IMG/VR virus record: IMGVR_UViG_3300017917_003866
Coordinates: 8,520-72,519 of that record
From: a virus
Direction: 5' to 3' (one strand)
DNA: 64,000 nucleotides
The translations under genes were made by a program, and so were the position numbers. The notes below the pieces were generated by a model. It did not search any database. It was not told the origin of the DNA and saw only the letters and a list, made by a program, of their open reading frames with translations. How positions within the stretch are numbered: position 1 is the stretch's first letter; each line of letters begins with the position of its first letter. Shown here in pieces: positions 17,446-63,609 of this stretch.

Positions 17446-20400
17446 ATGACTCTTCAAAATCTTTTATTCTTTGATAAAAAAGGAGACCAATATATTTTTA
17501 AATGGAATGGAAATTATTGGGAAGGCTCGGTTCTTTTTCCTGTAGTTTCCGAAAAACTATTCGAGGTGCAACACATCTTCGTAATAGAAAAATTTTTAAA
17601 TACTTCAGCTGAGATAGAATATGGGTTTCCACATTCATACGGTACAAGTCCAGGAACACCAGTGTGGAGAACAAGATGGGAATCAAATTATGACGGGAAA
17701 ACCGATGTATCTAATATAATATACACTTATGAATTAGGTGTAGACGGGGAATTAGATTCACCGGTTCTAGTTAAGACCAATAGCGTAGAATTTTATCCCG
17801 AGGTAGTTCCTGGAGACATTGTAGATTCTCCTAGTGGTATTGTAGTTACCAGCGATATTAATTCTTCTTCGATGCAAATTAATATAGCATTGAACTCTGA
17901 AAACGAAGGGATATACGATAGGACTTTTATATTAGAGGATTATACAGATCCAAACAATCCTATTACTATTTTAAAAGTAGGGTTCCATGGTGAAGTAGAG
18001 GGAGAAGACAGTAGGCTCTCAGTATTATTAGGAAACTTTGGTAGAGAATTTAATCCACCTGACGCTTTAATAGTAAGAGAAGGTGATATAAAAGAAGAAT
18101 TTCCAGATTATGAAATAATCAACAAGAAAAGAAAAGAGTTATTACTTGCAGGAGAGAGCATATTTCCATATTTAGGATCTTACAAATCTCTATTTAATGC
18201 TATAAAATTCTTTGGATATTATGATTTAAGGGTTAAAGAATATTGGCTTAATATTAAAAAAGATGACGCTGACACTTTAACACCATTACAACAGAATCAA
18301 AAGATATTAAATCAATTAAGTCAGCCTAATATTGAGGGTCAAAGTAAATTGGAACTTATAAGTAGTTTAATAAAAGACGAAAATGAGGGTAAATTTAAAC
18401 AAGTAGAAATATACGGGAAAAGAAAAGACGGGACATTCGGATTGAAAAAACAATTCGAGCAATTATTTCCATCCAAGTCTTTTAAAAAGACCGCTTTATT
18501 TGGACTTTTCTATGATATAAATAGGGTGGTAGAAGATCAGGACGAGGATCAATATGGATATCCTATAGTTGAAGATTCTTTTGCTTTTAGCCCTGAAGAA
18601 GTCCTTATAAAACTTTTTGGATTAAAAGAAAGATTAAAAAGGGATTACCTTCCACTTAATGCTAGAATAATTGATATTACCGGTGAGGGTGTATATTTTA
18701 ATATCTATAAAACAAGAGGGTGGACAGACCAGGTAGATATAAGTGAAATAAAAGGTGGGATAAAGGTAGACTTTACAGTCTTTCCTGAAAATGGATACGT
18801 TGAAGATCTTAGACCTTTTTATACTAAACCAAATCAATCTGGTATATTATATCCAGCAATAAATGGTGCAGAACCAGGAATAAGCTATTATGGAAACACA
18901 GTGGATCCTTATTCTTATTTTCAAGAGTACCCAATATCTACTATTCCTACATGGGAGACTGCTATACAATCTTTTTATGATGACGTAAAAAGTGGTACAA
19001 TGCCTAAATTTTTAGGCGATGGTGATTACGATTATCCTGGATATAAATTATTCTCAAACGGTACTGAATACGTATTCCCTGCGGGATGTCCAATAATAAT
19101 TAAGGATAATACATTTACCCTTCCTTGGGACGATGTAAGTGCAACATGGAATTCTTTTGATACAACAGTAACTACCACACCATTACAAATAGCAAGTTAC
19201 AACAGTACTACTGTAAGCAATCCAGGTACACCTATTCAAACAGTTAATAGTACTAGTACTTTTACATTACCTACAACATTTCCATCGAATGTTACTATTA
19301 ATATAGGTCCAGGAAATGATTGGTTTGATACAACATTTCCTGAGGTTATATTTGTTAGAGTAGAATCTGTAAGTTCTCCTGGAAATTTGGTTCTTGGGTA
19401 TTGTAGTGCGGGAGATTATAATACTGTTACTGGTGATCTCTATATACAGATGATGTATACTAGAGGATCTGGTGAGTATTCAAACTGGAAAGTAACACCT
19501 ACTAATTTAGGATTTAGTAGCTATACTTTTGAATATTACGAAAACTTTGTACAGTCCAACGGATTTTATTCTTGGGATAGAATACCTTACCTAGATTTCT
19601 ATGAAATAGAATGGACCATATACAAGAATGATGATATTAGTCCTTACTTCTTCCAGATAAGAGGAGGATTACCAGATTTAGAGACATTAGTACATTTTGT
19701 TCCTTATGTAGGGGAATACAATATTAAATGTAGAGTTTGGGACACTCTAAATTCTATATCATTAGGAATAAAGAGATCTGTTTTAAAAGTTGATAAAAGA
19801 TCTATAGAATTAAATACGATAACTAGATTTAGAGAATCTGAGATCTATGATTGGAATAATGTTCCTTTGAAATGGGAAAGTTACCCATCTCAATGGATTT
19901 TCCCAGTAGAAAACACAAATAAGATCTTAGATATTTCTGATATGATAGAAAATTATCCGGAGTATTCTAATAATTTTAATGAGGGACAACAGTGCGAGGT
20001 ACTGGCTAAAGTTCCAGAGGTTAAAGCAACTATCGATTTTGAAATAGGAGTTAATCAAATAGATATTAACAACATTGTTAGTACTTATAACGGATCAGGT
20101 TATTCACTGGCTATCGTAACAACAAATACCCCTCATGGATATTCTTCAGGTAATACTGTTTGGATATATGATTCTTTAGGATCTCCTTATGGTCAATATC
20201 CGATAACAGTAACTGGACCCAATACTTTTGAAATACCCGAGATAATTATTACTGCTATAATTGGAGGATACGTTTACGGATCTGGTAATGTTAAGATAAC
20301 TGCTGATTCATTATTAATAGCTGATTGTAATTTTCAAGGGGATATAAATTCAACAACTAGTTTAGTTTATAGTACAATAAATTCTTCTCCCCTAACTCCT

Positions 20401-28138: not shown

Positions 28139-31100
28139 ATGTCGAATACTAAAAATTCATTTTCATCACTAATAGCACAATTCCTTAGGCTTCAAAAGAA
28201 TTCTTTGGAGATTATAAATAAGCTAAATGATGTTACAACATCATCTAAAGATTCAGTTGAGATTGAATTCTTAATGGATGATAACACTTCAGAAAATATA
28301 CAGGTTCCTTCCTTTGGATTTTTAAAAACTGAGATCAATAGATTAGATGAAAATATAAAAGCATTATCTGGATTGGAAGACAATAAAGCTAATGTTAGAA
28401 ATGCGGATGGTACTGTTGCTAAAATATATCAAGCTAAAACTTTAAAAGATCCCTCATCTCCTTCTAGCTTACAGGTTCCTGGAACTTTCCAAGCTAGAAA
28501 CAATTGGTTTTTTGAATCTTTCTTAAATCCTCTTCTTTATATAGAAATTGATGTAGAGAACCAAATACCAGAAAATTCAGAAAGTGTTTACGTAAAAAGA
28601 ATTATTGCTAATACCCAATCAGATGTACAAAAGCAATACTTCGACAACAATCTTAAAGGAAGGAATGATATTACAGATGCTGACTTTATAGCTTCTTTAG
28701 AAAGTCAGGGAATTCAATATTTTGTTGATGAACAAATAAACAGTCTAGATCTAAGAACAATAAGATATACTGGATCTTTCGGGGTTTTAAGAATATTTGA
28801 CGAAGAATTACAGACAACAGTAAATGGAGTAACAACAACTAATACCGTTAGAAAATATAAACTCAACACATTAAAATATAATGATGTTCTTTCAGATACT
28901 GAAAATTCTAGAACGCTAACAAAAGGAGATCTTTTAATAACAAACGGCGGTACTAAATATGAAATAACTGCTATTGATATTACAAACCAGACAATAGTAT
29001 TAAAAAGATTATTCGGATTTGAAGCAATACAACTAGGTGATTCATCCTTAACAATATATTCAAACGTTCTATCTAACAGACAGGTAGAAGTAAATGTTGG
29101 ATTCGATGAGAGACAAGGGGTATTTATTAAATCAATCGACGGAGATTTTAACGTAGCTTCTAGTAAGTATAGCCCTGGTATTTGTTTCTGGTCTAACGAA
29201 TTACAGATAACAACATCTGATGGTGTAAAAACATTAGAGGCATTTTACAATTCACAAGTTTCTGATTTTGGTAAAATATTTATAGCTTCTGCAAAAGATA
29301 ATACTATTCCTGCTATATACGGACAAACGCCTTCTGCTCCGGTGGTTTCTCCCGGTAATTTTAAGGTAGTAAGAGTAAATTCACAGATTACTAATTCTAA
29401 GGAAAGCGTTTCTTTTAAAGACAAGATAAAAATAAAGAACACCCTTAAGAATGAGATAGATTCTATCGATAGAGCTATAGATCAAACTAGGAAACAAATA
29501 TCTGAGTTAACTACTACTTCTGCAGGAAGCACTCCAACAGCAGAATACAAAAAACTTAATGATAAAATAAGTTCACTTACTAAGGATAAGGCATCTAAAA
29601 CTGAATTGGTCTCTACCACGATATCTGAGATAAACAATTTAATTATAACCGTTCCTGAAATCACAGAATCTCCTAAATACAGAGTAAGAGGATTCTGGCC
29701 TATACCTGAGCCTATAATCGATCCTAAAACAGGAGAGCAAAATATAGTTCAATTTAATGTAAGATATAGATATCTTTCCACTACTGGAAATCCTAACGGG
29801 GTAGATCAGATTGATTATATTGATAATAATGGGGTTGCAAAAACTGGACAGTTTACTAACTGGACTCAATTTAAAAGCGACGTAAGAAAGAAAATATATG
29901 ACATTAATACTGGAACATATGTTTGGCAAATAGAAGACGTTAGCGATGCTAATACGGTAAATATAAACCAGTTAGATATTCCTATTACAAAGGGAGAGAA
30001 GGTAGAAATACAGGTACAGTCTATATCTGAAGCTGGATGGCCAACTAATCCACTTACTTCCGATTGGTCAACCTCAGCGATAGTTGATTTTCCACCTGAT
30101 CTTGTTGTTCAAGTTGACAATTCTGCTTTTGCTGTACAAAATAATACTGATACTGCTGTTGCTAGAGTTCAGAGCGATTTACAAGCTAAGGGGTTAGATC
30201 AGCATTTATCGACACAGTTTACTTCAGGTGATAAATTTTTTGCACATAATTCATCTGTTATAGCATCTGGATTTTTTGATGCAACAGGTAAAGCATTAGA
30301 TCTATTCCAGAAATTAACTCAAATTGATAATGAACTTCAATCTCTAAGAGCTCTTATAGCTAAAGCAAAAGGAACTCTTGGAGTTTATTTAAGAAGCGGA
30401 AATACTTCTAACAAAGTAAATCCAGGAAGCACTGTAAACTTATTTGCTGGATACTATGATCAAATTATAGATCTATCGAATCCAAGTAATAAGGGTAAAA
30501 TTGCTAGTACAGTTTATTATATAGAATTAAGAAACGAAGCAGCAACTCCTTTAGAGCTTTCTTCTTTAATACCTGGAGGACAGGGAGTAAAAGCTCCTAA
30601 TTCTATTTCAGGACAAGCAGATTACAACAACAATAGAAAGTATGGAAATACTCCAGTCCAACTTTCAGGAATAGTTAGTGGTGATGTTAATGTTTCAAAT
30701 CCTGGATCTTTCGTACAAGCTTCGGGATATCAAAGTGCTAATGCTTATTCACAGTTTGTATATAACAGATATAAGAGCGTTGGATTAGATGAGGATCTTT
30801 ATTTTGCTCCACCTACTTCTCTAACATGGAACCCTACTACAGGTAACACCGTTAATGGATCCCCGGTAAATAATGATGGTATAATTATGCCTTATGATCC
30901 CTCAGGATCTCCTATAGGAGCTGGACCTAATGCTAACGTTTGGATTGGAACTTATGCAGGTACAACTCCAAATGGTAATGGAAATCTTAATGAATTCTGT
31001 ATACACATATCACATCCTGATATAAATGATGGAACCTCTCCTCTTTTTGGATCTTTAGTTAGACCTTCTGTTTTACCTACTGGTCCTATGGAATATCCTT

Positions 31101-31630
31101 CATTTAGACACGCTTTAGGATTTGAAACTGATACTAATATTAATAGTACTATTCCAGGATTCCAGAGCGCTTCATATCAACAACTTGAATATTATTCAGC
31201 TAATCCTGCATCTTCATTTGGTACTGACGATAACGCATATCCTAATAAATTGGGATTTGTAGAATCTGACGAATTCTTATGTGGTAAATTTTCTTGCGGA
31301 TCCTATCTATTTTTAGCTCCTACTAATCATACTGCGGTACAGATAGAAGGATCTACACAATTAGCAAAAAAGACGCTAGATTTTGGCCAGGAGAATGCTA
31401 TAACGATACCACTTGTTTTTCAAATGAGAGCACAAGATAAGCTTGGATATGTTGGAGGATGGAGATCTGCAGGTAACCTAAAGAATATTACCTATACTAA
31501 GAAAATAGGAATAGATATACAGGTAAAGAATGAGGATCTTTTTTCTTTCGATGTTCTAGTAACAGGAAGTTACACTAAGACCTCATTAGTTTCACCAGCT
31601 TATTCTCAAAGTAAGAAAACAACTATCTAG
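28139..31630 (+). CDS. Large virion structural protein
   Basis: 1163 aa; beta-rich domains with two coiled coils; structural context. Confidence 0.55.
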   Translation: MSNTKNSFSSLIAQFLRLQKNSLEIINKLNDVTTSSKDSVEIEFLMDDNTSENIQVPSFGFLKTEINRLDENIKALSGLEDNKANVRNADGTVAKIYQAKTLKDPSSPSSLQVPGTFQARNNWFFESFLNPLLYIEIDVENQIPENSESVYVKRIIANTQSDVQKQYFDNNLKGRNDITDADFIASLESQGIQYFVDEQINSLDLRTIRYTGSFGVLRIFDEELQTTVNGVTTTNTVRKYKLNTLKYNDVLSDTENSRTLTKGDLLITNGGTKYEITAIDITNQTIVLKRLFGFEAIQLGDSSLTIYSNVLSNRQVEVNVGFDERQGVFIKSIDGDFNVASSKYSPGICFWSNELQITTSDGVKTLEAFYNSQVSDFGKIFIASAKDNTIPAIYGQTPSAPVVSPGNFKVVRVNSQITNSKESVSFKDKIKIKNTLKNEIDSIDRAIDQTRKQISELTTTSAGSTPTAEYKKLNDKISSLTKDKASKTELVSTTISEINNLIITVPEITESPKYRVRGFWPIPEPIIDPKTGEQNIVQFNVRYRYLSTTGNPNGVDQIDYIDNNGVAKTGQFTNWTQFKSDVRKKIYDINTGTYVWQIEDVSDANTVNINQLDIPITKGEKVEIQVQSISEAGWPTNPLTSDWSTSAIVDFPPDLVVQVDNSAFAVQNNTDTAVARVQSDLQAKGLDQHLSTQFTSGDKFFAHNSSVIASGFFDATGKALDLFQKLTQIDNELQSLRALIAKAKGTLGVYLRSGNTSNKVNPGSTVNLFAGYYDQIIDLSNPSNKGKIASTVYYIELRNEAATPLELSSLIPGGQGVKAPNSISGQADYNNNRKYGNTPVQLSGIVSGDVNVSNPGSFVQASGYQSANAYSQFVYNRYKSVGLDEDLYFAPPTSLTWNPTTGNTVNGSPVNNDGIIMPYDPSGSPIGAGPNANVWIGTYAGTTPNGNGNLNEFCIHISHPDINDGTSPLFGSLVRPSVLPTGPMEYPSFRHALGFETDTNINSTIPGFQSASYQQLEYYSANPASSFGTDDNAYPNKLGFVESDEFLCGKFSCGSYLFLAPTNHTAVQIEGSTQLAKKTLDFGQENAITIPLVFQMRAQDKLGYVGGWRSAGNLKNITYTKKIGIDIQVKNEDLFSFDVLVTGSYTKTSLVSPAYSQSKKTTI

Positions 31631-48836: not shown

Positions 48837-48844
48837 GATATATA
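48837..48844 (+). promoter_or_regulatory. Candidate late promoter (GATATATA)
   Basis: Right after uvsW, at the start of the putative head-protein cluster. Confidence 0.5.
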
Positions 48845-48862: not shown

Positions 48863-49471
48863 TTGATGCAAAAAATTAAAAACTTTAAGGATTTTTGTCA
48901 AATTAATGAGTCTAACGAGGAGCTTTTTTTTAGAAGGCATCTTGGTAATAACGCTTCAAGCTATGATGATCGTGCTAAAAATCATTATGATTTAGGTGAT
49001 AATCCTTCAGTGTTACAAAAAACTAAAAACTTCTTCCAAAAAATGGAAGATAGAATCAATAGAGCTGCTGAAATAGGTAAACAACAAGTTAGACAAAATA
49101 GAGCAAGCAGAACTCACGGAGGTCCTGATACAGGATTCGAAATTCTTTTCGGATCCTTATCTGTGGTTCCTAATGTGTTAAAAAGAGTATTTGCCCCTAC
49201 TAAATATGAGTTTACTAAGAAAGCACCTAGTGAAGATAAGGTAGATCTAGAATTTATGAGGCATACAAATGAAGATTTTGCTCAAAACGAACTTCCTAAT
49301 ATCAAAACTGAGGATCAGTTAGCTGATCATATAGGTGATTTATATAATAGAGGTGATGTTGTAATGGGCCAAGTACCAGTATTAGATGATATAGCTAGAA
49401 ATAGGGTAAATCTTTATTACCAACATCAGGCAAATCCATCCCAACCTATATTCCAAACAAATAATGTATAA
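48863..49471 (+). CDS. Hypothetical protein, putative internal head protein
   Basis: N-terminus MQKIKNFKDFCQINES (ATG at 48866); GATATATA upstream. Confidence 0.6.
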   Translation: MMQKIKNFKDFCQINESNEELFFRRHLGNNASSYDDRAKNHYDLGDNPSVLQKTKNFFQKMEDRINRAAEIGKQQVRQNRASRTHGGPDTGFEILFGSLSVVPNVLKRVFAPTKYEFTKKAPSEDKVDLEFMRHTNEDFAQNELPNIKTEDQLADHIGDLYNRGDVVMGQVPVLDDIARNRVNLYYQHQANPSQPIFQTNNV

Positions 49472-50313: not shown

Positions 50314-50757
50314 ATGTTTAATCCTATACAGAGTACAGCACTTTATCCAGTTTTACAGCATTATACAGGATGTAAGATATCTTCAATATCTTTAGAGGGA
50401 GATGATTTTATATTCAAAACACTTTTAGGAGAAAATGGTATACTCAAGGAGGATATTACGGGAAACTGGAGTATTAAAATAGGACAAGAGCTTGTTTATA
50501 CGATAGAAAAAGATATTTTCAATGTATTGATCAATCCGGACAAAAAAAGCTCTTTAGAAGACTACATAGATATACTAAATGATCTATTTAATAATAAGGA
50601 TATAAGTTATAGATCTAGACTTTTAGTAGTAAATATCATGAAATTTTTAGAGGAATATATAATAAGTTCAGATTTCGTCCCTAAGAAAAGCTTAAGGATA
50701 GGACCTCTTTTAATTTATAATTTAAAAGGTAGAAAAATTATTAATTGTTTAAACTGA
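50314..50757 (+). CDS. Hypothetical protein
   Basis: 147 aa ORF tightly packed in operon. Confidence 0.55.
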   Translation: MFNPIQSTALYPVLQHYTGCKISSISLEGDDFIFKTLLGENGILKEDITGNWSIKIGQELVYTIEKDIFNVLINPDKKSSLEDYIDILNDLFNNKDISYRSRLLVVNIMKFLEEYIISSDFVPKKSLRIGPLLIYNLKGRKIINCLN

Positions 50758-52775
50758 TGCCTGGAATAAAATATTTATCGGACATATACGAGAAAAAAGG
50801 AAAGTCCTTTATTGAGAATCTTTTCAATAAAAATTTAACAGTAACTGAAAATTTGGATGGTCCATCTTTTTCTTTCGAGCGAGATTTTACTGGAGACAAT
50901 ATATCTTTTTATAAAAAAGATCAAGATAATCCTATAACTAAGGTTGATAGGATTTTAATGAGATATTACGAAAAACCTATAAGTTATATAGAATCTATAT
51001 CTCCTGAAATTATGAATCAGCTTCCTAAGGGATGGAGATTCGGAATGATTTATTTTCCGAATACTAAGCCTGTTAGAATAGAGTATGATAGAATACCAAA
51101 AAACCATTTAATACTAACACATGTAATGGTTAGGGATGAGTTTGGTGAAATTATAGATAATATCCAAGACAAAAGTGAATTGGACGAATGGGCTGATAAA
51201 TTAGGCGTTGAAAGATCTCCTATTATTTTTCAAGGGAAGTTAAATAGAGATCAGAAGATATCCATAATGGATTTTCTTTCTACCCCTCTTATGGATTTAA
51301 AAAATAAATTTAAAACCGAGAGTTTTACCAAATATCTAATATCTATTTTAAATAAAAATGTTGAATCCACCACATTAGGAAAGGATTTACAGGGTGAAAT
51401 AGATTCTCTAGTTTTTAGATTTGAAGACGAGGAGGGAAAGGAAGAGACTGTTTTAGCAAAAATGGTAGATCCGGTTTTCCATGAAATAAATAAAAGCAGA
51501 AAGGTTACTCAGACCTCTTATTTTCCTAGTGATGTTTATTCTTTATGTCTTATAGACGTAATGAATTTTATATTAGAGACTGGAGTAGAAAATTTTATAG
51601 CTTATGGAAATGACCCAGAGGAAAGATACATTGGTTTTGTTTTCGATGTATTTAAAAAATTCATATACGAGGAGGGAGAAAAATACGTAGGCGCAGATTT
51701 TCAAAAACCAGAGTATTTAAAAAGCGAGGGGTTTGAAATAAATAAGGATCTAATAAAAGATGATGAGGTATTAAAGTTTATTGAGGATGACGAAGTTTAT
51801 ATAGACATACTTCAAATGATACTTAATTCATTTAGAAAGCTCAAAAGAAAACCTCATGGATTTTTCACAGAAGGCCTAATACAGCAGTTTAATATGTTAG
51901 TAGAAGAAATAGCTAATTATATAAATGCTAAGAAAAAAGAGCTTGTAGAGGAATCTTTAGGGGTTCCAAGTTTTGTATGGTTTAAAAAAGTTGGAGCTAG
52001 ATTTAATCCTATATTAAATGAAGAAGAGAGCGAAGATGAATATGAAGAATTGGAGGAGATAATAGATGGTACACTTCCTGATAATATCGTTCCACTTAAC
52101 GAGTCTGAAGATAATTCTCTTCTAAAAAAAGAGGATGATTCAGATAATAAAGACACCTCAGAATTTTTCTCGTTTAAAGATTTTAAAAAAGTAGTATCTA
52201 CTCATAAGGAAAAAAGAAAAATAAAGATATTGAACGAAAATAATAGTAAGGTAAATATAGTAATTGGGAAATTTCAACCATTTAATAATGGGCACTTAAA
52301 AATGTGTACAAGATTAAAGAAAGAAAACAATTTACCAGTTTTTCTTTGTGTAGTACATCCAGGAAGCGAGCCTGGTTCTAAATATCCCTTCTCGGAGGAT
52401 TTGATAAAAAAATCAATAGGATCTTTAACATCAGAGAATAATAAATTATTTGCTGGGTACGAAATAATACCATCTAATCTTTTGGAGGATGCCATAAATT
52501 CAGTTGCAAAACATGCTAATCCTGCTTCAATTTGCATAGGGGAAAGAGATTTTGAAAATATGGTTTTACAGAGAGAATGGGTAAGAAACAAATACGATTT
52601 AGAAGGAGGAGATATAGAAATATACAAAACCCCCCAATGGTCTAATAATAATGATATTAGAAAATCTATAAAAGATGGTGACTTTCAACAATTTAAAAGC
52701 AAAGTACCTAAATCTATAGCAGTTCTTTTCAATGAATTTACTAAACAAATAAACGGTTCTGAGGAGGATATATAA
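50757..52775 (+). CDS. Fusion of RNA-ligase-like N-terminal domain and HIGH-family cytidylyltransferase-like C-terminal domain
   Basis: VTENLDG (ligase motif I-like), PIIFQG, LVFRF, LAKMVD; C-terminal IVIGKFQPFNNGH...PFS; ATG at 50757 overlaps the upstream TGA. Confidence 0.6.
   Translation: MPGIKYLSDIYEKKGKSFIENLFNKNLTVTENLDGPSFSFERDFTGDNISFYKKDQDNPITKVDRILMRYYEKPISYIESISPEIMNQLPKGWRFGMIYFPNTKPVRIEYDRIPKNHLILTHVMVRDEFGEIIDNIQDKSELDEWADKLGVERSPIIFQGKLNRDQKISIMDFLSTPLMDLKNKFKTESFTKYLISILNKNVESTTLGKDLQGEIDSLVFRFEDEEGKEETVLAKMVDPVFHEINKSRKVTQTSYFPSDVYSLCLIDVMNFILETGVENFIAYGNDPEERYIGFVFDVFKKFIYEEGEKYVGADFQKPEYLKSEGFEINKDLIKDDEVLKFIEDDEVYIDILQMILNSFRKLKRKPHGFFTEGLIQQFNMLVEEIANYINAKKKELVEESLGVPSFVWFKKVGARFNPILNEEESEDEYEELEEIIDGTLPDNIVPLNESEDNSLLKKEDDSDNKDTSEFFSFKDFKKVVSTHKEKRKIKILNENNSKVNIVIGKFQPFNNGHLKMCTRLKKENNLPVFLCVVHPGSEPGSKYPFSEDLIKKSIGSLTSENNKLFAGYEIIPSNLLEDAINSVAKHANPASICIGERDFENMVLQREWVRNKYDLEGGDIEIYKTPQWSNNNDIRKSIKDGDFQQFKSKVPKSIAVLFNEFTKQINGSEEDI
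52767..52774 (+). promoter_or_regulatory. Candidate late promoter (GATATATA)
   Basis: Upstream of the peptidase gene; GATATATAAAATAA is identical to the copy at 54637. Confidence 0.5.
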
Positions 52776-52792
52776 AATAATTAAATGGAGAA

Positions 52793-53650
52793 ATGAAAAG
52801 AATATTATCCTTCAGCGATTTTGCTATTTTTGAATATAACGGTTTTGGATACTCAGCTAATAATTTAAATGAAGCTGTTTATCTAGACGAGAGAAATAAA
52901 ACTCCACATAATCCAGATGCTCTTAAAAAAATGAGGGCGTGTGTTTTTTTACTTAATGCTTCATATCCGTTTTTTGCTTCTATGTTATCTAGATTATTAA
53001 TCAGAGAAAATAGAAATCTTAGATTTAAAACAATGGCAACCGACGGGGTTAGTATACATTACGACCCGGATTTTGTTCTTGCCCATACAGACGAAGAAAT
53101 AATATGGGTAATCGCACACGAAGTTTTACATAACACCCTAGTTCACTTTCTAAGATGTCCTAAGGATAAAACAAAAGCTGGTGTATGGAATGTCGCTGCA
53201 GATTATGCTCTGAATCAACTCTTAACCCCAATAGATCCAGCAACAGCGGATACTACTAAGCCCACACCTGCTGGAAAAGGAGGGATAGGAAAAATGGTAG
53301 AGGGATCACTTTATCCTGGATGTGGACACGTTCCTTATGATTATGAGTTTGTAAATAGGACTGCGGAATGGATATACAACAAACTCCTGGAAAATGGATA
53401 TGTACCGGAACCTGGTGATGATCCTAAACCTACACCACCACCACCGCCACCACCAAAAGATCCCATAGTTGGAGATATTATATACGATCCAGGAAATCAA
53501 TCTTATGGGATAGTTAAATCTATAGACGAAAATTCTGGAGATCTTGAATATGACCCGATACCTAAAGAAAAAGTAAAAGAATATTTAAAAAGAAAATCTA
53601 AAGGTGAAAATATCTTAGGTGATGACATAGAAAAAGAACTAGACTTCTAA
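52793..53650 (+). CDS. Putative metallopeptidase (DUF2201 N-terminal-like)
   Basis: PFFASML, TMATDG..IHYDPDFV, IAHEVLH (HEXXH), WNVAADYALN; poly-Pro linker and small C-terminal beta domain. Confidence 0.85.
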   Translation: MKRILSFSDFAIFEYNGFGYSANNLNEAVYLDERNKTPHNPDALKKMRACVFLLNASYPFFASMLSRLLIRENRNLRFKTMATDGVSIHYDPDFVLAHTDEEIIWVIAHEVLHNTLVHFLRCPKDKTKAGVWNVAADYALNQLLTPIDPATADTTKPTPAGKGGIGKMVEGSLYPGCGHVPYDYEFVNRTAEWIYNKLLENGYVPEPGDDPKPTPPPPPPPKDPIVGDIIYDPGNQSYGIVKSIDENSGDLEYDPIPKEKVKEYLKRKSKGENILGDDIEKELDF

Positions 53651-53659
53651 TTTACCAAT

Positions 53660-54631
53660 ATGAAAGCTAAAATAACAGATATAAGAATACAGGAATTACC
53701 GGAATCAGGTACAGGTACAGGTACAGGAACTCCATCTCCAGAAAATGTTGATCGATGGGGAGAAGACGTACAGGATAATGATGTACCAGAAAGAAATCCT
53801 GATGGTACATTAGAGGATTCAGAATTTAAAAGAGTCGATAGCCCAGGACCATCAGCTCCAGAGGGGTATAACCCAGGAGAAATACTCAGACCTGGTGAAC
53901 TTGGAGATCTTGGAGGTGATTCTGGATTAAACGGAGAAAGCTTAGCTGAGGAATGGGAGGATATTTCTAGATTAGCTGAGAAAACAGCAGGTAATATACC
54001 AGGATCTCTTAAAAGAGCTTTGGCTAAGATTAAGAAGCCAGTAGTAGATTGGAAAGCTGAACTAGCTAAGTATATAGACGAGGCTATATCTAAATCTAAA
54101 TACACATTACCTGCTAGAAGATTCCTTGGAGCAGGAAAAGCTCAGTATGGATATAAGAGATACAAGGAGGATTTCGAAAATGTGGTGGTTGCTATAGATA
54201 CATCAGGGTCTATTACTAGGGATATGATAGAACAATTCCTTGGCGAGGTTATGAAAATAACTGATGTTTATACTCCACAAAAAACTGTAATATTATATTG
54301 TGATACTCAGGTTTATGAACCGGATATATTAGAGCCAGGAGATTTACCAGATCTTAATAAAATAGCTGGTGGGGGTGGGACTTATTTTTGGCCTCCTTTT
54401 AAATGGGTTCAAAAAAATATGATGGAAGAGGGTGAAAAACCTACAATATTTATATACTTTACTGACGGGGAAGCTACATTCCCTTCTGAGCAGGATTATG
54501 ATATTGCGGATTATTCTGATAGATGTATCTGGGTATTTGTTACATTCAACGATCAGCCTTACCCTAATCCACAGCCTTTCGGAGAAAGAATAGACATTGT
54601 TCTTGCTAATAAGAACGCGAAAAGAATATAA
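53660..54631 (+). CDS. vWA domain protein (DUF2201 C-terminal-like)
   Basis: PVVDWKAEL, MIDAS VVAIDTSGSI, YCDT, GGGGTYFWPPF, IYFTDG. Confidence 0.88.
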   Translation: MKAKITDIRIQELPESGTGTGTGTPSPENVDRWGEDVQDNDVPERNPDGTLEDSEFKRVDSPGPSAPEGYNPGEILRPGELGDLGGDSGLNGESLAEEWEDISRLAEKTAGNIPGSLKRALAKIKKPVVDWKAELAKYIDEAISKSKYTLPARRFLGAGKAQYGYKRYKEDFENVVVAIDTSGSITRDMIEQFLGEVMKITDVYTPQKTVILYCDTQVYEPDILEPGDLPDLNKIAGGGGTYFWPPFKWVQKNMMEEGEKPTIFIYFTDGEATFPSEQDYDIADYSDRCIWVFVTFNDQPYPNPQPFGERIDIVLANKNAKRI

Positions 54632-54636
54632 AAATA

Positions 54637-54644
54637 GATATATA
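54637..54644 (+). promoter_or_regulatory. Candidate late promoter (GATATATA)
   Basis: Upstream of the AAA ATPase gene. Confidence 0.5.
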
Positions 54645-54658
54645 AAATAAAAAAAATA

Positions 54659-56267
54659 ATGGGAAAGAGAATTTATAATTTTGACGAGTTTGTAAATGAA
54701 TCCTATATGAATGAGGGATTTTTCTCTGATCTAGGTTCAAAAATATCTACTTGGGCAAAAAATTTATATAACGCTGTTAAATCTGGTATTGTTAGATTAA
54801 TATCTTCAGGTCCTAAATCAGGAACCCCGAGAGTTGCTCTATTTGATGATTCAAAAAGTGAATCTATATTAGATCAGGTTAATAATTTTTATAAAGGAAC
54901 TGAGTACTATAATATGAATAACCTGCAAATTCCAGAGACTATGCAGGAGAGTTTCCTATGGGAAGATGCAGTTCCTCTAGAGTATCCTATGAAGGATGAT
55001 ATTCCTAATTATAGCGAAGCCGAAATAAAAACGGATATCAAGAGAAGCATGAGAGAAATCTTTAGGATAGCTGATGAAATGGATGCTGCCGCACAATCTG
55101 GAGCTAGCGAAGATGAGATAGATGATATTTACAGAGGTATATTAGATGTTAAGCCTATATTTATATACGGAGCTCCTGGAATTGGTAAAACACAAATTGT
55201 AGCTCAAGTATGCGATGAACTAGGAAAAGAACTATATGGTCACAAGCTTTCATTAGTTAACGTAGATGGTGAAAACGCAGAGCCTGTAGATTTTGCTGGT
55301 GTACCTAGTGTAGTAGACATCGAAACTCCATCTGAAGAAAACCCTATCGGTAGAGGAGTTACAAGATCTAATATTAATGCAGATATATTACCTTACGATA
55401 ACGGAAGAAACGGAAAAGGAGGTATAATATTTATTGACGAGCTAAATAGGATGCCGGAAGAGGTTATCAAAATATTTATGAAGCTAGCACAATCTAGAAG
55501 AGTTGGTAATAATTATAAAATTCCTTCTAGATGGTATATCGTTGCAGCAGGTAACAGAAAAGAGGATGATCCTAGAGGAGGAATAAAAGAATTAGGAACA
55601 GCTCTTAGAGATAGATTCGAGGCAGTTAACTTTGTTCCTACTATAAAAGGATTTAGAAAATATGTTGAGACTAGCAGATATAAAGACGTTGTTTTACCAG
55701 AACTACTAGATTTCTTAGAATTCCAACCTGACTTCTTCCATAATTTAGATCCTGGTCTTAAGAAAACTAAATATCCTACTCCTAGAGCTTGGGTAGATGC
55801 TTCAAACTCTTTAAAAAGAGCTATTAGAGAATTAGAATCAAAAGGAGTTACAGAAATTCCTGATGAGGTTATAAGAAGAGAATTTACTAAGAACGTTGGT
55901 CACGATGCTACTGCAGCTTTTATAAATTTCTATAAAATAGCTAAAGATATTCCAGTTAGGGATCTTATGCTTCCTTTTACTGATCCAGATAAAGCACCAG
56001 TACCTGCAGACAAAGGAAACAGACCTGATTATACACATGCTTTAATGGGAGCGGTTCTTAGAAAAAGTAAAGAAATTAATCTAACTCCTAAAGAAGTTTG
56101 TAATTGGGCTAAATGGCTAGAAAGAACTGATCTTGAAGAGGAAGGAGCTGCAGCTATTAATACTTTCTTTAATTTGCATCCTGCACTACAAAAAGATCCT
56201 GCAATGTACGCTTGTGTAGCACCTCTAGCTGACAGATGGGGAGCTAAATTGGGTATATCATTATAAA
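54659..56267 (+). CDS. MoxR/dynein-related AAA+ ATPase
   Basis: Walker A GAPGIGKT, Walker B IIFIDELNR, IVAAGNR, ALRDRF, PTPRAW. Confidence 0.88.
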
Positions 56268-56539
56268 TGAAAAAATATAGTCAAATAAAAGAGGGTCATA
56301 CCTACAAGTATGACCTTTCTAATAGTAAAAAACTTCTAGAAGAAGCCATAGAGAGAATAAATATGGTAAAGGAGGAGTTTTCTAAATTAGAAGATATAGA
56401 CTTACAAGAATTAGAAGAAGGTTGGAACCTTATAGATAAATACTATGGAAACGTTGTTAGAGGGGAAATATTTAAAAGAAAGAAAAAAAGATATATTCCA
56501 AATACCTCAGCAGTTTTTCCAAGAAAAGGAGATAGCTAA
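56267..56539 (+). CDS. Hypothetical protein
   Basis: 90 aa; abuts the AAA gene; N-terminus MKKYSQIKEG. Confidence 0.55.
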   Translation: MKKYSQIKEGHTYKYDLSNSKKLLEEAIERINMVKEEFSKLEDIDLQELEEGWNLIDKYYGNVVRGEIFKRKKKRYIPNTSAVFPRKGDS

Positions 56540-56541
56540 TT

Positions 56542-57078
56542 ATGAGACATATAAAATTATTTGAACAGTTTTTATTAGAGGAGGACGGATTCGGTAGAGA
56601 CTTCTTTGTTAAAAAGAAGGATGGCAAGGTTTCGAAATACTTCTTTAAGATAGAGGGCGAGGAAGACGATCATGGATTCATTGTTAATATTGGTAAACTT
56701 TCCAGAGGATCTTCTATAGACGAAGCTGAAAATAGCTACTGTGTAATATCAGTAGAGCCTATAAAAACTAGTGTACTGGATGACTATTTAGTAAAAGATA
56801 CAGATTATAAATCTAGAGAAGACGATGATTTTTCTTTAACTAAATCTGAGTTCATGAGATTTTATAGAATATTAGGTGAAGCCATAAAAGATTATCTCCA
56901 AAATAATCCTAAGGTCTCTAAAATATATGATGAGATTCCTCTTAACCTTAATATAGATATTTCAGAATATAAAGATAGGGTAACATCTTTAATGGATGAA
57001 TGGAGCTATGAAAAATGGAGTATACAGGACGGAGCTGAAGAGCGAACATTACTTTATAGTAGAAGAGACCATGATTAA
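56542..57078 (+). CDS. Hypothetical protein, putative internal head protein
   Basis: N-terminus MRHIKLFEQFLLEE. Confidence 0.6.
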   Translation: MRHIKLFEQFLLEEDGFGRDFFVKKKDGKVSKYFFKIEGEEDDHGFIVNIGKLSRGSSIDEAENSYCVISVEPIKTSVLDDYLVKDTDYKSREDDDFSLTKSEFMRFYRILGEAIKDYLQNNPKVSKIYDEIPLNLNIDISEYKDRVTSLMDEWSYEKWSIQDGAEERTLLYSRRDHD

Positions 57079-57382
57079 TAATATTCTTTCATACGAAGAA
57101 TTTATAAACGAATCTAGAATTCCAATTGCTTGGGCTAAGCCATCGAATACTGCTATAAAGGTACTTTCATTTATAGGAGAAAAAGAAAAAGTAACTAAAA
57201 GGGAGCTTACTGAATTCTTAGATACCATACCTGAGGATGCCTCAGGAAAAAAACCTAGCATGAATTGGGTTAGAGGACAGAAAAAATATATAAAATATAA
57301 AGTCCAGGAAGAAGAAGCCAACTATTTTTCATTAACTCCTCTAGGAAAAAGGATATTAAGGGTATCCAGAGTAAACGAATAA
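57071..57382 (+). CDS. Winged-helix-like protein, putative internal head protein
   Basis: Start at ATG 57071 (MINNILSYEEFINES); KVLSFIGEKEKVTKRELTEFL...YFSLTPLGKRIL fits a wHTH pattern. Confidence 0.55.
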   Translation: MINNILSYEEFINESRIPIAWAKPSNTAIKVLSFIGEKEKVTKRELTEFLDTIPEDASGKKPSMNWVRGQKKYIKYKVQEEEANYFSLTPLGKRILRVSRVNE

Positions 57383-57953: not shown

Positions 57954-58127
57954 ATGGAAAAGAAAAAAACAAGATCCGCGGAGACAAGTTCATATGAGCC
58001 ACCTGTTTCACCTGTTAAAATACCTGATGGAGATACCGGTTTTAATATGGTAAAAAATAATTATCGTAGATTTATATGGACTTGGAATGAATATATAAAG
58101 AAAAAGCCAAAATTCCAAAAAACATAA
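57954..58127 (+). CDS. Small hypothetical protein
   Basis: ATG at 57954 (MEKKKTRS...), downstream of the terminator; C-terminal IWTWNEYIKKK. Confidence 0.5.
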   Translation: MEKKKTRSAETSSYEPPVSPVKIPDGDTGFNMVKNNYRRFIWTWNEYIKKKPKFQKT

Positions 58128-58131
58128 ATTT

Positions 58132-58464
58132 ATGCCAGCAGTATCTAGAACACAGCAAAGATTAATGGGACAAGCATACGGAGTTCGTAAATGGATGGAC
58201 ACTAATGGAAAGGAAGGTATAAATCCTAAAAATATAGATTCTGAGTATAGAGAAACTATTGTTGATATAGCTAATAATATGAAGAAGAAGGATCTTAAAC
58301 ATTATGCAGAAACAAAGCACAAAAAACTTCCTGAAAGAATAGAAGAGGGGATCGATACAATAATTCCACATCTTAGTCCGGAGGCTAATAAACCAAAAAA
58401 ATCTAAAAATAGGAAGATGCAGAATCTATCAGATTATAGAGAATTTATTAACAGAAAAAAATAA
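58132..58464 (+). CDS. DUF3008-like phage protein
   Basis: MPAVSRTQQRLMGQA...DLKHYAETKHKKLPE resembles the MPAKSKAQQ...ASTKHKGLPE family. Confidence 0.65.
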   Translation: MPAVSRTQQRLMGQAYGVRKWMDTNGKEGINPKNIDSEYRETIVDIANNMKKKDLKHYAETKHKKLPERIEEGIDTIIPHLSPEANKPKKSKNRKMQNLSDYREFINRKK

Positions 58465-58472
58465 ATAATAAC

Positions 58473-58940
58473 ATGAGCGAAGATTGCGGATGTGGAGGAA
58501 CCACAGATAATATAAGAAGCTACGAAAATCAAAGAGCCACTAAATACGATCAAGATCCTTTAGTAGGAAAAAAAGTATCCTTGGTAGATGGAAGAAGCGG
58601 AAGAGTTGATGATTCTATTAGAAACAGTGTGGGTGAAGTGATAGGATATGTGATAGAAGGCGAAAGAGGAATGTATAGGGTATTTAAGGATAAGATATCT
58701 TCTGAACTTGAAGAAAGTGGTGGTGCTATGGCTTCTTTAGCAGGAACACCAGGAATGGGTAACGTTATCCCTCCAGGTCCAGGAAGAACAGGGTCAGGTG
58801 ATCAATTTCCTAGCTTAACTGTAGGTACACCTGCTGCTAAAAAAAAGAAGAAAAAGGTTTCTAAAGAAAATCCTAGTCCTATAAGTAATTCGCTAATGGA
58901 TTTTAAAACATTCATGAACAATTCTAAAGCTAATCAGTAG
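58473..58940 (+). CDS. Hypothetical protein
   Basis: 155 aa; small beta domain, TPGMGNV motif, C-terminal LMDFKTFM. Confidence 0.6.
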   Translation: MSEDCGCGGTTDNIRSYENQRATKYDQDPLVGKKVSLVDGRSGRVDDSIRNSVGEVIGYVIEGERGMYRVFKDKISSELEESGGAMASLAGTPGMGNVIPPGPGRTGSGDQFPSLTVGTPAAKKKKKKVSKENPSPISNSLMDFKTFMNNSKANQ

Positions 58941-59051: not shown

Positions 59052-59381
59052 ATGTTTACAAAAGAATTACAATTACCAGTTTTACTTAACACCATTAGAA
59101 AATCACTAGGCGGTTATGTTTATAAGAATGGTGTTCTATTATTCGATGTTCCTGGATTTTCTAAGGAAGATATTGAAATTACTATAGAAGAAAACATAAT
59201 GCAAATCTATGGTAAGAAAGAAATCTTAGGAGAGGAATATGAAATTAGTAAGAAATTTTCTATACCTTATTATTATTTAGATTCTTCTAATCCAATAAAA
59301 GCAAAGGTTGAAAACGGTTTGCTATTCATCGAATTAACAAAAAGCGAAAAAAATAAACAAACTAAGGTTGAAATATCTTAA
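59052..59381 (+). CDS. Small heat shock protein (Hsp20/alpha-crystallin)
   Basis: FDVPGFSKEDIEITIEENIMQIYG...IKAKVENGLLFIEL. Confidence 0.88.
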   Translation: MFTKELQLPVLLNTIRKSLGGYVYKNGVLLFDVPGFSKEDIEITIEENIMQIYGKKEILGEEYEISKKFSIPYYYLDSSNPIKAKVENGLLFIELTKSEKNKQTKVEIS

Positions 59382-59390
59382 TTTAGCCTA

Positions 59391-59777
59391 GTGCAAAGAA
59401 TTAAGATAATACAGGAAGAATATTCTAATGACCCATGGAAAGTACTAGTATGTTGTATATTACTCAACCAAACTAGTAACAAACAGGTAAGACCCTTAAT
59501 AGAAAGTTTTTTTAATAGATGGCCAAATTCTCAATCATTATTGAATGAAGAGATTTTGGCCATTTCTGATTTTATAAGGTCCACTGGATTTCAAAATATA
59601 AAAGCTAAGAGAATTAAAGAATTCTCAAGTGCATGGGAGATGGGTATAAGGGATCCTTTTAAATTTCCTGGTATTGGCGATTATGGCAGGGAAGCTTGGA
59701 GAATATTTGTTGATAACGACAAATCATTTATCCCGAAAGACAAGAAGCTTAAAATGTATTTAGAATCGGTTCAGTAA
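59391..59777 (+). CDS. HhH-GPD DNA glycosylase, MBD4-like
   Basis: DPWKVLVCCILLNQTS, FPGIGDYGREAWRIF, PKDKKL. Confidence 0.8.
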   Translation: MQRIKIIQEEYSNDPWKVLVCCILLNQTSNKQVRPLIESFFNRWPNSQSLLNEEILAISDFIRSTGFQNIKAKRIKEFSSAWEMGIRDPFKFPGIGDYGREAWRIFVDNDKSFIPKDKKLKMYLESVQ

Positions 59778-59787
59778 TATATACTAC

Positions 59788-60369
59788 ATGAATCATTTAT
59801 TTACTTTCCACGAGTTATTCGAAAAACTACAAATGGTAACTGCCAATTGGTCTATAATAAGTAACGAAAGCTCATTCGATAAAAAAGAAGAAAGTGGATA
59901 TCTTGTCTTTAGTAAAAACGGAACATTCTCTATCATATACAAAAAAAAGAAAGACAAGGAAGAATCCAGAATAGAATTTTATTCAGGAAAAGAAAACTCC
60001 ACTGATAAAAAATCTGTTTGTGAGTGTAAGATAACAACAGATGCAGGTACAGATAGAGTAAAAAAAGGATTCGAAGATATAACTCCAGATAATATGTGGG
60101 ATATATTGGTAACTTTTTTTGATTATTCAGATTTGGAAAAAATAGATAAGAATTCCGTTGATAGATTCATGATGGGTTTTGCTAAATCTATAAAAGAAGT
60201 AAATAAGAGCGAGGAGAAGGATCAATTATCACCTTCATTTAAGGTTTTTTATAAGTATCTAACTGAATGGAGTAATAAATCTAAGAATATACCTCCAGTT
60301 ACTACAGACGAATATAATTTTATGGATATAGTTAATAAATTCGTTACCTACTTTAAGTCTAATAAATAA
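59788..60369 (+). CDS. Hypothetical protein, putative internal head protein
   Basis: N-terminus MNHLFTFHELFE; AATATATA upstream. Confidence 0.55.
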   Translation: MNHLFTFHELFEKLQMVTANWSIISNESSFDKKEESGYLVFSKNGTFSIIYKKKKDKEESRIEFYSGKENSTDKKSVCECKITTDAGTDRVKKGFEDITPDNMWDILVTFFDYSDLEKIDKNSVDRFMMGFAKSIKEVNKSEEKDQLSPSFKVFYKYLTEWSNKSKNIPPVTTDEYNFMDIVNKFVTYFKSNK

Positions 60370-62628: not shown

Positions 62629-63609
62629 ATGGAAAAATTACTAACACCCAATCCTAGAAGATTTTCTTTATTCCCAGTTCAGCACCACGATATGTGGACT
62701 ATGTATAAAACTGCGGAGGCTTCTTTTTGGACCGCTGAAGAAATAGACCTAGCACAAGATATTACTCATTGGAGAGATAAGTTGAATGACAATGAGAGAT
62801 ATTTTATTAAGCATGTAATTGCATTTTTTAACAATTCAGATGGTATTGTTAACGAGAACCTTGCAGCTAATTTTTTTAATCAGGTACAATATCCAGAAGC
62901 AAGATGCTTCTATGGATTTCAATTAGCTATTGAAAATATACACGGTGAAACTTATTCCCTTCTTATCGATTCATACATATCAGACGAGGAAGAGAAAGAG
63001 CATTTATTTAATGCTATTGATACTGTTCCTTCTGTTAAAAGAAAAGCTGATTGGGCAATGAAATGGATAGAAAAAGGATCTTTTACTGAGACTCTAATAG
63101 CTTTTGCAGCAGTGGAAGGAATTTTCTTTTCTGGATCTTTCTGTTCAATCTTTTGGTTAAAGAAAAGAGGCCTAATGCCTGGTCTATGTTTTGCTAATGA
63201 ATTAATATCAAGAGACGAGGGATTACATTGCGATTTTGCTTGTTTACTTTACACTAGCCACATCGAAAATAAACTTCCAGTGGAAACAGTAACAGAGATA
63301 ATTACTGAAGCTGTAGAGATTGAAAAAGAGTTTGTTACATCCTCATTACCTGTTAGACTTATTGGTATGAACGCAGATCTTATGTGTGAGTACATAGAAT
63401 TTGTAGCAGATAGATTATTAGTTTCATTAGGATGTCCTAAAATTTATAATACCAGATGCCCATTTGATTTTATGGTTAATATAGCTTTAGAAAACAAGGG
63501 TAATTTCTTTGAAGGTAGAGTAGGTTCTTATCAGAAATCTGGTGTTATGGACAGCACTAAAGATAATAAAGATTCAGGTAAAACATTTACTATGGATGCA
63601 GATTTTTAA
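62629..63609 (+). CDS. nrdB: Ribonucleotide reductase class Ia beta subunit
   Basis: [54 protein letters not shown]. Confidence 0.95.

Follow-up and report, generated by a model that had tools for sequence, protein, structure and literature searches.

A split DUF2201 metallopeptidase–vWA protein and a MoxR-class ATPase with leaders resembling the T4 capsid targeting sequence: a candidate head-packaged remodelling system in an uncultured freshwater jumbo phage

The stretch of DNA analysed here (the window, 64,000 nucleotides, positions 8,520 to 72,519 of IMG/VR record IMGVR_UViG_3300017917_003866) is the final 64 kb of a 72.5-kb virus contig from an uncultured freshwater giant or jumbo phage group, and it carries on its + strand, from position 52,793 to 56,266, three adjacent genes that encode a metallopeptidase, a von Willebrand factor A (vWA) protein and a MoxR-class AAA+ ATPase. 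An initial annotation had described these genes as a triad with intact catalytic motifs, in which the peptidase and the ATPase carry capsid-targeting-like leaders behind candidate late promoters, and had proposed that the module is made late and loaded into the phage head. The motifs themselves (HEVLH, DTSGS, Walker A and B, and ALRDRF) are all present and are invariant in the alignments of the relatives. The window has a G+C content of ~32% and nearly all of its genes are on the + strand. Up to ~44 kb it encodes baseplate and tail-type proteins (a baseplate hub matching phrog_430/37871, a wedge protein matching phrog_219 and a weak tail-tube match), and the region from 44 to 64 kb, where the module sits, encodes a RuvC-like protein, a single-stranded DNA-binding protein (SSB), primase, helicase, DNA polymerase, a pyrophosphohydrolase and the small subunit of ribonucleotide reductase (RNR). 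We compared the module with 13 related loci from IMG/VR, whose ATPases are 52–86% identical to that of the window over nearly the full length, with a 248-kb relative (G001; 343 open reading frames (ORFs), 76,193 aa), with an independent far relative (LR756500.1, a 462-kb phage whose ATPase is 31% identical) and with two control phages, PTm1 and PAU, which are AT-rich, cultured and members of the same broad group.

The peptidase gene (52,793 to 53,650, + strand, 285 aa) and the vWA gene (53,660 to 54,631, + strand, 323 aa) correspond to the N-terminal and C-terminal halves of a DUF2201 protein. PF13203 (DUF2201_N) matches the peptidase half with 63.2 bits (cut-off 23.2) over residues 54–145, which are profile positions 13–100 of 271, and matches the vWA half with 29.7 bits (same cut-off) over profile positions 203–261. 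The vWA half also matches PF09967 (67.1 bits, cut-off 26.4) over profile positions 1–122 of 123. The same division is seen with phrog_1314 (394 positions), of which 11–154 are covered by the peptidase half and 177–390 by the vWA half; the label of this family, "HNH endonuclease", is evidently a misnomer. As the peptidase and the vWA protein are halves of a single family profile, the supposed triad is a pair, and the module has two components and not three: a split DUF2201 protein and the ATPase. The peptidase half starts with the leader (residues 1–14) and continues with a second L-N-E site at residue 27, the HEVLH domain, a Pro-rich linker and, at the C-terminus, a small conserved beta element (residues ~224–265). 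Its residues H109, E110 and H113 (HEVLH, nt 53,117–53,131) are invariant in 11 sequences (the window and 10 relatives, alignment A2). In the vWA half, a conserved MKAKIT strand is followed by a low-complexity stretch rich in Gly and acidic residues, by the end of DUF2201_N and by the vWA domain, in which D180-T-S-G-S184 of the metal-ion-dependent adhesion site (MIDAS; nt 54,197–54,211) and T268-D269-G270 are invariant in 12 sequences (alignment A3).

The two domains do not lie on one polypeptide in this lineage: the window has a separate ORF for each, and so have 12 of the 12 relatives whose sequence extends far enough (the 13th locus, L006, is cut and stands outside this count), whereas LR756500.1 retains a fused DUF2201 protein of 491 aa. 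In the window the two ORFs are separated by TAA, 9 nt and ATG and share a reading frame, but the halves are in a common frame in just 5 of the 11 sequences compared (without L005 and L012, which nearly duplicate L003 and L008), and every vWA gene opens with its own conserved start, MKAKIT(D/G)(V/I). These two observations rule out read-through or recoding of the TAA, and the split is therefore a true and old one. One of the loci contains two tandem vWA-half genes (L001:5973-7967), 61% and 80% identical to that of the window and both with DTSGS, and two others (L002 and L004) have an apparent remnant of an MKAKIT start in the spacer upstream of their single vWA gene.

Complex modelling, which the initial annotation had suggested as a check, paired the two halves: the model of the peptidase half with the vWA half reached an ipSAE of 0.61 (0.68, 0.61 and 0.60 in three runs) against 0.01 for the best of three controls, with a partner predicted local distance difference test (pLDDT) of at least 71 and at least 75% of the contacts common to the runs. 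Of 157 solved complexes 116 passed the mark of the complex tool, as did 2 of 215 mismatched pairs; these counts are only roughly applicable here because we used our own alignments. The tightest predicted contacts are those of vWA residues 1–11 with peptidase residues 228–233 and 249–253, which belong to the beta element, and vWA residues 69–124 are packed on the peptidase domain. This modelled contact pattern places the cut within an inserted mini-domain; by prediction the halves re-associate through strand complementation and rebuild the peptidase domain (DUF2201_N).

The ATPase gene (54,659 to 56,266, + strand) starts 27 nt after the end of the vWA half, and this gene order is kept in the 12 relatives that reach far enough. 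Its product, of 535 aa, matches PF07728 (AAA_5; 36.2 bits, cut-off 22) and phrog_1297 ("ATPase"), the latter over residues 165–516 and with the C-terminal helical domain common to both. The Pfam MoxR model, AAA_3 (PF07726), scored 16.7 bits, under its cut-off of 27, and for this reason we name the protein MoxR-class and not a member of the AAA_3 family. Walker A (nt 55,169–55,192), Walker B (nt 55,436–55,441) and ALRDRF (nt 55,601–55,618) are represented in 12 ATPases by the invariant residues G171-x-P-G-I-G-K-T178 (GAPGIGKT), D260-E261 and A315-L316-x-x-R319-F320, respectively. An AlphaFold2 model built on a 26-sequence alignment had a pLDDT of 77, and a Foldseek search with it placed NorQ at ranks 1–8 (E 3e-6 to 1.4e-5, template modelling score by target 0.49–0.55) and CbbQ2 at rank 23, so that on the model the fold is closest to the MoxR-class proteins NorQ and CbbQ. 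An earlier model (12 sequences, pLDDT 66) had given only generic AAA+ matches by Foldseek and VIA-align, and a sequence search of solved structures returned nothing usable for the peptidase, the vWA half or the ATPase. Like the window's protein, NorQ and CbbQ work with vWA partners that have a MIDAS (NorD and CbbO); these cellular partners lack a metallopeptidase, the cellular pairs have their role in enzyme maturation, and the sequence identity is just 16–19%.

What distinguishes this ATPase is its lineage-specific N-extension of ~165 residues, which begins with the leader (residues 1–14, nt 54,659–54,700). Whether the leader-bearing extension is lineage-specific was a question raised by the initial annotation, and the answer was affirmative: the match to the window ATPase begins at residue 145–168, that is, without the extension, in all 30 listed of 663 phage records, and residues 1–165 alone retrieved 32 clusters among 1.84 billion protein representatives. 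We fetched 16 of these 32 clusters, of which 14 were full-length ATPases (495–599 aa), all with a leader-like opening; the other two, P0018 and P0031, were unrelated repeat proteins and were discarded as spurious. In the 26-sequence model, residues 1–28 have a pLDDT below 50, as expected for a free peptide, and they are followed by a small modelled domain (residues ~30–90, pLDDT 70–85) and a loose linker (92–105). Within the small domain, residues 43–80 form a strongly conserved stretch, (L/I)IPSGPK.G.P...F......(S)I..Q, and across the 26 sequences G51 and G55 are invariant and I48, K53, I70 and Q73 nearly so.

Furthermore, the peptidase and ATPase genes are preceded by an identical 14-mer, GATATATAAAATAA, as the initial annotation had seen: one copy at 52,767 to 52,780 (+ strand), 26 nt before the peptidase start, and a second at 54,637 to 54,650 (+ strand), 22 nt before the ATPase start. 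These are the only two exact copies in the window, where 0.01 would be expected (100 shuffles, none of which reached 2). In the relatives the flanks vary and the core is retained: the 45 nt upstream of the ATPase contain RATATATA in 14 of 14 sequences, those upstream of the peptidase in 13 of 13 (the window and 12 loci) and those upstream of the vWA gene in none of 13. The motif takes the form (G)ATATATA(A/G), that is GATATATA(A/G), and in 23 of 30 sites position −1 is a G. As an over-represented word RATATATA was rejected, since the window contains 21 copies and 27.5 would be expected; only its placement is special. In fact, 19 of the 21 copies are on the coding strand, and 11 of these 19 + strand sites fall in the zones located 8–45 nt ahead of called starts, which account for 2.8% of the window (binomial P 5e-13). 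The genes concerned start at 15126, 25015, 37296 and 41021 (baseplate, tail-fibre-like and the gene before a tail-tube-like gene), at 48866, 52793, 54659 and 59788 (leader genes), at 57954 and 58132, and at 62629 (RNR small subunit). In G001 the motif precedes the prohead protease ORF and the head-region genes 22136 and 24290, and ATATATA lies within 45 nt upstream of 21 of the 32 leader genes compared with 37 of 311 others (odds ratio 14, p 6e-11). In T4 the late promoter is a TATAAATA box ~10 nt before the transcript start. By its position the motif behaves like a promoter, and from the company it keeps, the head and tail genes, it is probably a late one. Of the candidate late promoters suggested earlier, the conserved placement and the occurrence before head and tail genes have held up; the motif is not the T4 box. 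Moreover, because the motif is kept before the two leader-bearing genes of the module but in no case before the vWA gene, there seem to be two transcription units, one with the peptidase and vWA genes and the other with the ATPase and the genes after it.

The leader that had been noticed on the peptidase and the ATPase as F-x-x-F...NE was recovered in both proteins as an N-terminal match to a position-specific scoring matrix (PSSM, threshold 9), and its consensus of 13–15 residues reads M-K/R-x-I/L-x-x-F/Y-x-x-F-I/V/L-N-E, followed by S/G/A (also Q). Five genes of the window have such a match, those that start at 48866, 52793 (the peptidase half, with a score of 16.6), 54659, 56542 and 57071. 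Apart from the module, they encode orphan proteins of 201 aa (48,866 to 49,471, + strand, with the promoter-like motif at 48,837), 178 aa (56,542 to 57,078, + strand, opening MRHIKLFEQF, PSSM score 25.9, with no family match) and 103 aa (57,071 to 57,382, + strand, opening MINNILSYEEFINES, PSSM score 23.2, with no Pfam match), the last two being conserved in the relatives. A weaker leader-like N-terminus (MNHLFTFHELFEKLQ) is present in a protein of 193 aa (59,788 to 60,369, + strand), which has the motif AATATATA at 59,776; the window copy stays under the threshold, and the G001 ortholog scores 20.7. Two further ORFs (58,132–58,464 and 58,473–58,940) end in a leader-like manner (...LSDYREFINRKK and ...LMDFKTFMNNSKANQ), possibly by chance, and a C-terminal version of the leader (...DYREFIN, ...DFKTFMN) was rejected, as no C-terminal PSSM match was found in G001 at thresholds of 9, 7 or 5.

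In G001, a strict regular expression found the leader 15 times at N-termini and 7 times elsewhere, and the PSSM gave 33 N-terminal matches (one of them dubious) and 3 internal ones, or 10.7 versus 0.046 per 1000 positions, so that about 32 of the 343 ORFs (~9%) carry it. The same matrix matched none of 317 N-termini in PTm1 and none of 297 in PAU, where internal matches numbered 6 and 9. In LR756500.1 there were 18 matches among 695 N-termini (of the type MKYIKEYEEFI..E) and 15 internal ones, and the carriers include the fused DUF2201 protein and a leucine-rich repeat protein. The aromatic and acidic residues stay in a fixed register and are kept across distant ATPases at 33–45% identity. From the G001 counts, the control phages and LR756500.1 we conclude that the leader is a genuine signal, specific to N-termini and belonging to a broad uncultured clade. 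The leucine-rich repeat protein of LR756500.1 (L035:7475-8248, opening MKYIQTYKDFLLEA) lies two genes past the fused DUF2201 gene, with a 255-aa ORF in between, and several of its paralogs elsewhere in that genome share the same start.

As for what the leader is attached to, 30 of the 32 G001 carriers were scanned with Pfam (two that cross piece borders were left out), and 24 of the 30 belong to no Pfam family; being mostly without a family, this cargo resembles the internal proteins of T4. The other carriers are the peptidase, the ATPase, proteins with a Tad3 and a CHAP domain, one whose OmpA match is sub-threshold, and an RNA ligase, which has a weak leader score and is perhaps a false match. 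The Tad3-like carrier (L028:11584-12351, 256 aa, opening MKRIKDFKGFINEQ) matches the Pfam Type I Thoeris inhibitor Tad3 with an E-value of 4.5e-21 (75.3 bits, cut-off 27), which makes it a candidate for an anti-Thoeris protein packaged in advance. The CHAP protein (L032:6615-7385; 27 bits, cut-off 26) and the OmpA-like protein (L028:6109-7542; 23.7 bits, under the cut-off of 27.2) are possible wall-acting virion proteins.

The leader resembles the capsid targeting sequence of phage T4. According to the T4 literature, the prohead protease gp21 cleaves N-terminal propeptides off gp23, gp24, Alt and also the internal proteins, the capsid targeting sequence being 10–20 residues long (PMC5694885), and this sequence is described as enough to package foreign proteins (PMC5694885, PMC3012670). 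In T4 and in this lineage alike, a short N-terminal leader that by its sequence ends after Glu is found on otherwise unrelated proteins, and both follow a pattern of K, an aromatic residue, E-F, I/V and x-E: the T4 internal proteins IPII and IPIII open MKTYQEFIAE and IPI opens MKTFKEFTS, the 103-aa protein of the window opens MINNILSYEEFINE and the ATPase opens MGKRIYNFDEFVNE, and one distant ATPase with the N-extension opens ...KTYQEFLNE, with KTYQEF as in IPII and IPIII. When the leader PSSM was applied in register, IPII (2.9) and IPIII (3.4) outscored the control N-termini of both phages without exception (373 and 353 of them, with maxima of 2.6 and −0.4) and stayed below the threshold of 9, and IPI gave no match (−10.8). 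The two systems differ in that the leader of the window's lineage is 3–4 residues longer at the front and is a candidate signal for targeting and cleavage; in that it is far more numerous here, at ~9% of the G001 ORFs (T4 itself was left out of the scan); and in that the cargo here would include an AAA+ ATPase and a metallopeptidase.

Head genes of the kind that such a leader would need are encoded by relatives. A Peptidase_S77 prohead protease together with a gp23-type capsid protein was found in three of five relatives, one of which has an ATPase 82–83% identical to that of the window, and the relatives' protease matches phrog_207 with an E-value of 1.9e-37. The capsid protein of G001 and G004 reads ...HSLNE and then SAGAYN at residue 43, and the alignment to the family profile begins near residue 50; the next head gene after the capsid gene reads LNE and then GLGD. 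By sequence comparison the leaders, whose last residues are [ILVF]-N/x-E with S, G, A or Q next, have the same L-N-E, S pattern as the capsid propeptide. In G001 the leader genes 23117 and 23979 come directly after the capsid gene cluster. The protease domain of G001 (residues ~17–262) opens a 677-aa ORF (18267–20300, L015), whose long C-terminal part may be a fused scaffold.

Taken together, the best reading of these observations is that the module is loaded into the phage head, and we give this reading an even chance of being right. The locus would be a phage two-component remodelling system made of a MoxR-class AAA+ ATPase and its DUF2201 partner, a Zn-metallopeptidase with a vWA domain. 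Both units would be transcribed from the GATATATA(A/G) motif, probably while heads are being built, as the motif also precedes head and tail genes. The leader would work like the T4 capsid targeting sequence and bring the peptidase half and the ATPase into the prohead core, the leaderless vWA half would enter bound to the peptidase half, and the T4-type prohead protease would remove the leader after Glu. Once packaged, the machine could act inside the maturing head, or it could leave with the DNA and use the ATP of the next host cell, where target proteins would be gripped by the MIDAS of the vWA half, remodelled by the ATPase and cut by the HExxH site, beside ~30 other leader-tagged proteins. 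We weakly favour ejection and action in the next cell, because the ATPase needs ATP, because other cargo looks counter-defensive or wall-acting (the Tad3-like and CHAP proteins) and because a homolog in another phage family has been linked to counter-defence. The fullest version of this idea, a packed unfoldase–adaptor–metalloprotease that is injected with ~30 leader proteins and meets host defence complexes before phage gene expression, we consider unlikely.

Several observations weigh against head loading. A search of sequencing runs listed no RNA run that contains the stretch. The module lies among replication genes (SSB, primase, helicase, DNA polymerase and RNR), and the homologs of the module in N4-like phages are located in non-structural regions. 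The protease and capsid context comes from relatives (ATPases 56–83% identical) and not from the window's own contig, because this contig is a fragment (24% complete by the CheckV estimate) with no head genes, and two of the five relatives gave no protease match. The vWA half has no leader of its own. The motif is not over-represented as an 8-mer, it differs from the T4 late promoter TATAAATA, and it also stands upstream of the RNR small-subunit gene, so that it is not exclusive to virion genes. As the PSSM was trained on G001, its count there is partly circular, while the regular-expression count, LR756500.1 and the two control phages are independent of that; the ORFs of the relatives were called crudely (longest ATG-only ORFs, greedy choice). 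Head cargo amounting to ~9% of all genes is a large number, and an AAA+ subunit of 60 kDa would need to unfold to get through the tail and then refold and assemble into hexamers again. Finally, the leader and the module occur together, in the G001 lineage and in LR756500.1, and are missing together from PTm1 and PAU, with a prohead protease in all of them, and this distribution also fits an explanation in which the module itself reads or removes the tag.

In that explanation the leader would be an address label, the vWA protein and the ATPase would capture the tagged proteins, and the DUF2201 peptidase would remove the leader, thereby activating or sorting pro-proteins. Besides the co-occurrence, the description of vWA domains as peptide-capturing co-chaperones of MoxR proteins (PMC7159879, in its treatment of these domains) speaks for it. 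Nevertheless, the co-occurrence comes from four genomes that are phylogenetically non-independent, the machine's own subunits are tagged, the end of the leader is the boundary motif of the capsid propeptide, which points to the Ser protease, and the similar T4 leader works without a MoxR module; we therefore hold this explanation to be improbable. A more serious alternative, doubtful in our view but with a real claim, is that the module is a late cytoplasmic assembly chaperone that folds, assembles or trims virion proteins without being packaged, the leader serving another purpose. It agrees with the promoter motif common to head and tail genes, with the proposal by Iyer et al. (2021), in the section on group 2.2 jumbo phages, that the pair acts in virion assembly with peptidolytic processing (PMC7824862), and with the Hsp20 gene 3 kb downstream of the module, given that in cyanophage S-TIM5 Hsp20 directly precedes the MoxR-like ATPase. 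Yet it leaves unexplained why a leader with a capsid-propeptide ending is found on two of the three module proteins and on ~30 mostly orphan proteins, the Tad3-like one included, and five cultured relatives build similar virions without the ATPase: the ATPase profile search found it in none of PTm1, pT24, PAU, MA9V-2 and MaF61, a search that had no positive control of its own, whereas the DUF2201 search had one in LR756500.1.

Two further explanations dispense with packaging as well. The module could be an intracellular counter-defence or host-takeover machine made after infection, as a 2026 transposon study reports that phage Bas54 (Vequintavirinae) depends on a MoxR ATPase gene to get past the predicted defence system DS-28 (PMC13716836), and Vequintavirus genes annotated as MoxR ATPase match the core of the window ATPase, with 25.8% identity and an E-value of 5e-11 for the related gene of Bas57. 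We give this explanation little credence, since the Bas54 gene is no more than a possible ortholog of the matched Vequintavirus genes, these phages lack the leader-bearing N-extension (their matches start at about residue 165 of the window ATPase), and PADLOC gave no notable match, only weak sub-domain AAA ones (E 4e-4 or worse). That the shared N-terminus has no role at the protein level and reflects, for example, a preference in the translation start region of an AT-rich genome would agree with the 32% G+C of the genome and with the AT-rich codons that encode the leaders; but the AT-rich control phages have no leader at all (0 of 317 and 0 of 297), and the fixed register of aromatic and acidic residues across distant ATPases makes this very hard to believe.

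The combination of a MoxR ATPase with a DUF2201 protein is already known, in hundreds of phages. By tblastn, 663 phage records matched the whole ATPase, 659 its core and 369 the vWA half, for which all 40 listed matches begin at query residue 97 or later. The ATPase-core matches include N4-like phages (one as "N4 gp24-like protein"), Vequintavirus genes annotated as MoxR ATPase and jumbo phages, and the pair of a MoxR ATPase and a metallopeptidase–vWA protein was described in group 2.2 jumbo phages by Iyer et al. (2021; PMC7824862, in the passage on these phages). As in those jumbo phages, the N4-like phages and S-TIM5, phrog_1297 and phrog_1314 are adjacent in the window and HExxH, MIDAS and Walker motifs are present. 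The window differs from them in that its DUF2201 protein is split into two genes, its ATPase has the long N-extension of the 32 clusters, the peptidase and the ATPase carry the leader, and both units lie behind a motif common to structural genes. An NCBIfam search gave nothing above the cut-offs.

The initial annotation knew of no virion-borne version of such a system, a statement that does not hold. Virions of Acidianus two-tailed virus (ATV) are reported to contain a MoxR-type ATPase, P618, that acts with a vWA protein, P892 (PMC3466262, in its report on these proteins). The likeness, which is one of description only, lies in an ATPase with a vWA co-chaperone as a virion component; ATV is an archaeal virus, and its pair has no peptidase domain and no leader and has its role in the growth of the tails outside the cell. 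In the portion of a Staphylococcus jumbo phage study that deals with virion proteins, an AAA ATPase, whose gene adjoins a metallopeptidase gene, was listed by liquid chromatography–mass spectrometry; its discussion apparently calls this ATPase MoxR-like, and its authors state that confirmation is needed (PMC10638138). The earlier interpretation as a whole is partly supported, with late timing, presence in virions and injection as its inferred part. Its comparison of the leader to a capsid-targeting signal is strengthened by the likeness to T4, by the propeptide motif in the relatives' capsid protein and by the T4-type prohead protease of the lineage.

Around the module, an ORF of 90 aa (56,267 to 56,539, + strand) has its ATG directly after the stop codon of the ATPase gene and matches no Pfam or PHROG family. 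An ORF of ~89–101 aa of this type (MKK[YF]S..., or MQKFS... in L009) follows the ATPase in 11 of 13 loci, the exceptions being L011, which ends at the ATPase, and L006, in which none was called; its product is possibly a further component or that of a co-transcribed gene. The Hsp20 gene (PF00011, E 7e-11) lies at 59,052–59,381, and in S-TIM5 the MoxR-like ATPase that Hsp20 precedes is accompanied by a 382-aa protein (L034). Directly upstream of the module, a 676-aa protein (50,745–52,775) has a cytidylyl/adenylyltransferase-like stretch in its C-terminal third (phrog_395, E 9e-6; TIGR00125 under the cut-off) and is conserved in all of the relatives that reach that far. When the neighbouring and structural genes were searched with Pfam, only HSP20 was above the cut-off, Collagen and DUF3008 were sub-threshold, and the 775-aa gene before the tail-tube-like gene received no Pfam name. 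A 1163-aa protein of the window (28,139–31,630) is 26–34% identical to proteins of Bacteroidota jumbo phages (Tenacibaculum PTm1, PTm5 and pT24, Chryseobacterium MA9V and Flavobacterium MaF61), Sphingomonas phage PAU and Lak-type megaphages.

The module is therefore of a known kind, and what is new is its split form, its leader, its promoter context and how large the leader regulon is. Should the leader prove to be a capsid address, the largest known set of T4-style packaged proteins would belong to this group of uncultured freshwater jumbo phages, and it would be the first such set with an AAA+ remodelling machine. In that case the leader, the promoter motif and the x-N-E, S boundary would constitute a sequence rule for injected proteins in metagenomes, by which a pool of candidate anti-defence proteins could be singled out; a Tad3-like protein is already among the carriers. 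Such an address would also point to a concrete role for the MoxR/DUF2201 pair, which is widespread in phages and unexplained. Even if packaging fails, the leader regulon, with ~9% of the genes and a distribution over lineages whose ATPases are only ~31% identical, is a real signal that awaits explanation.

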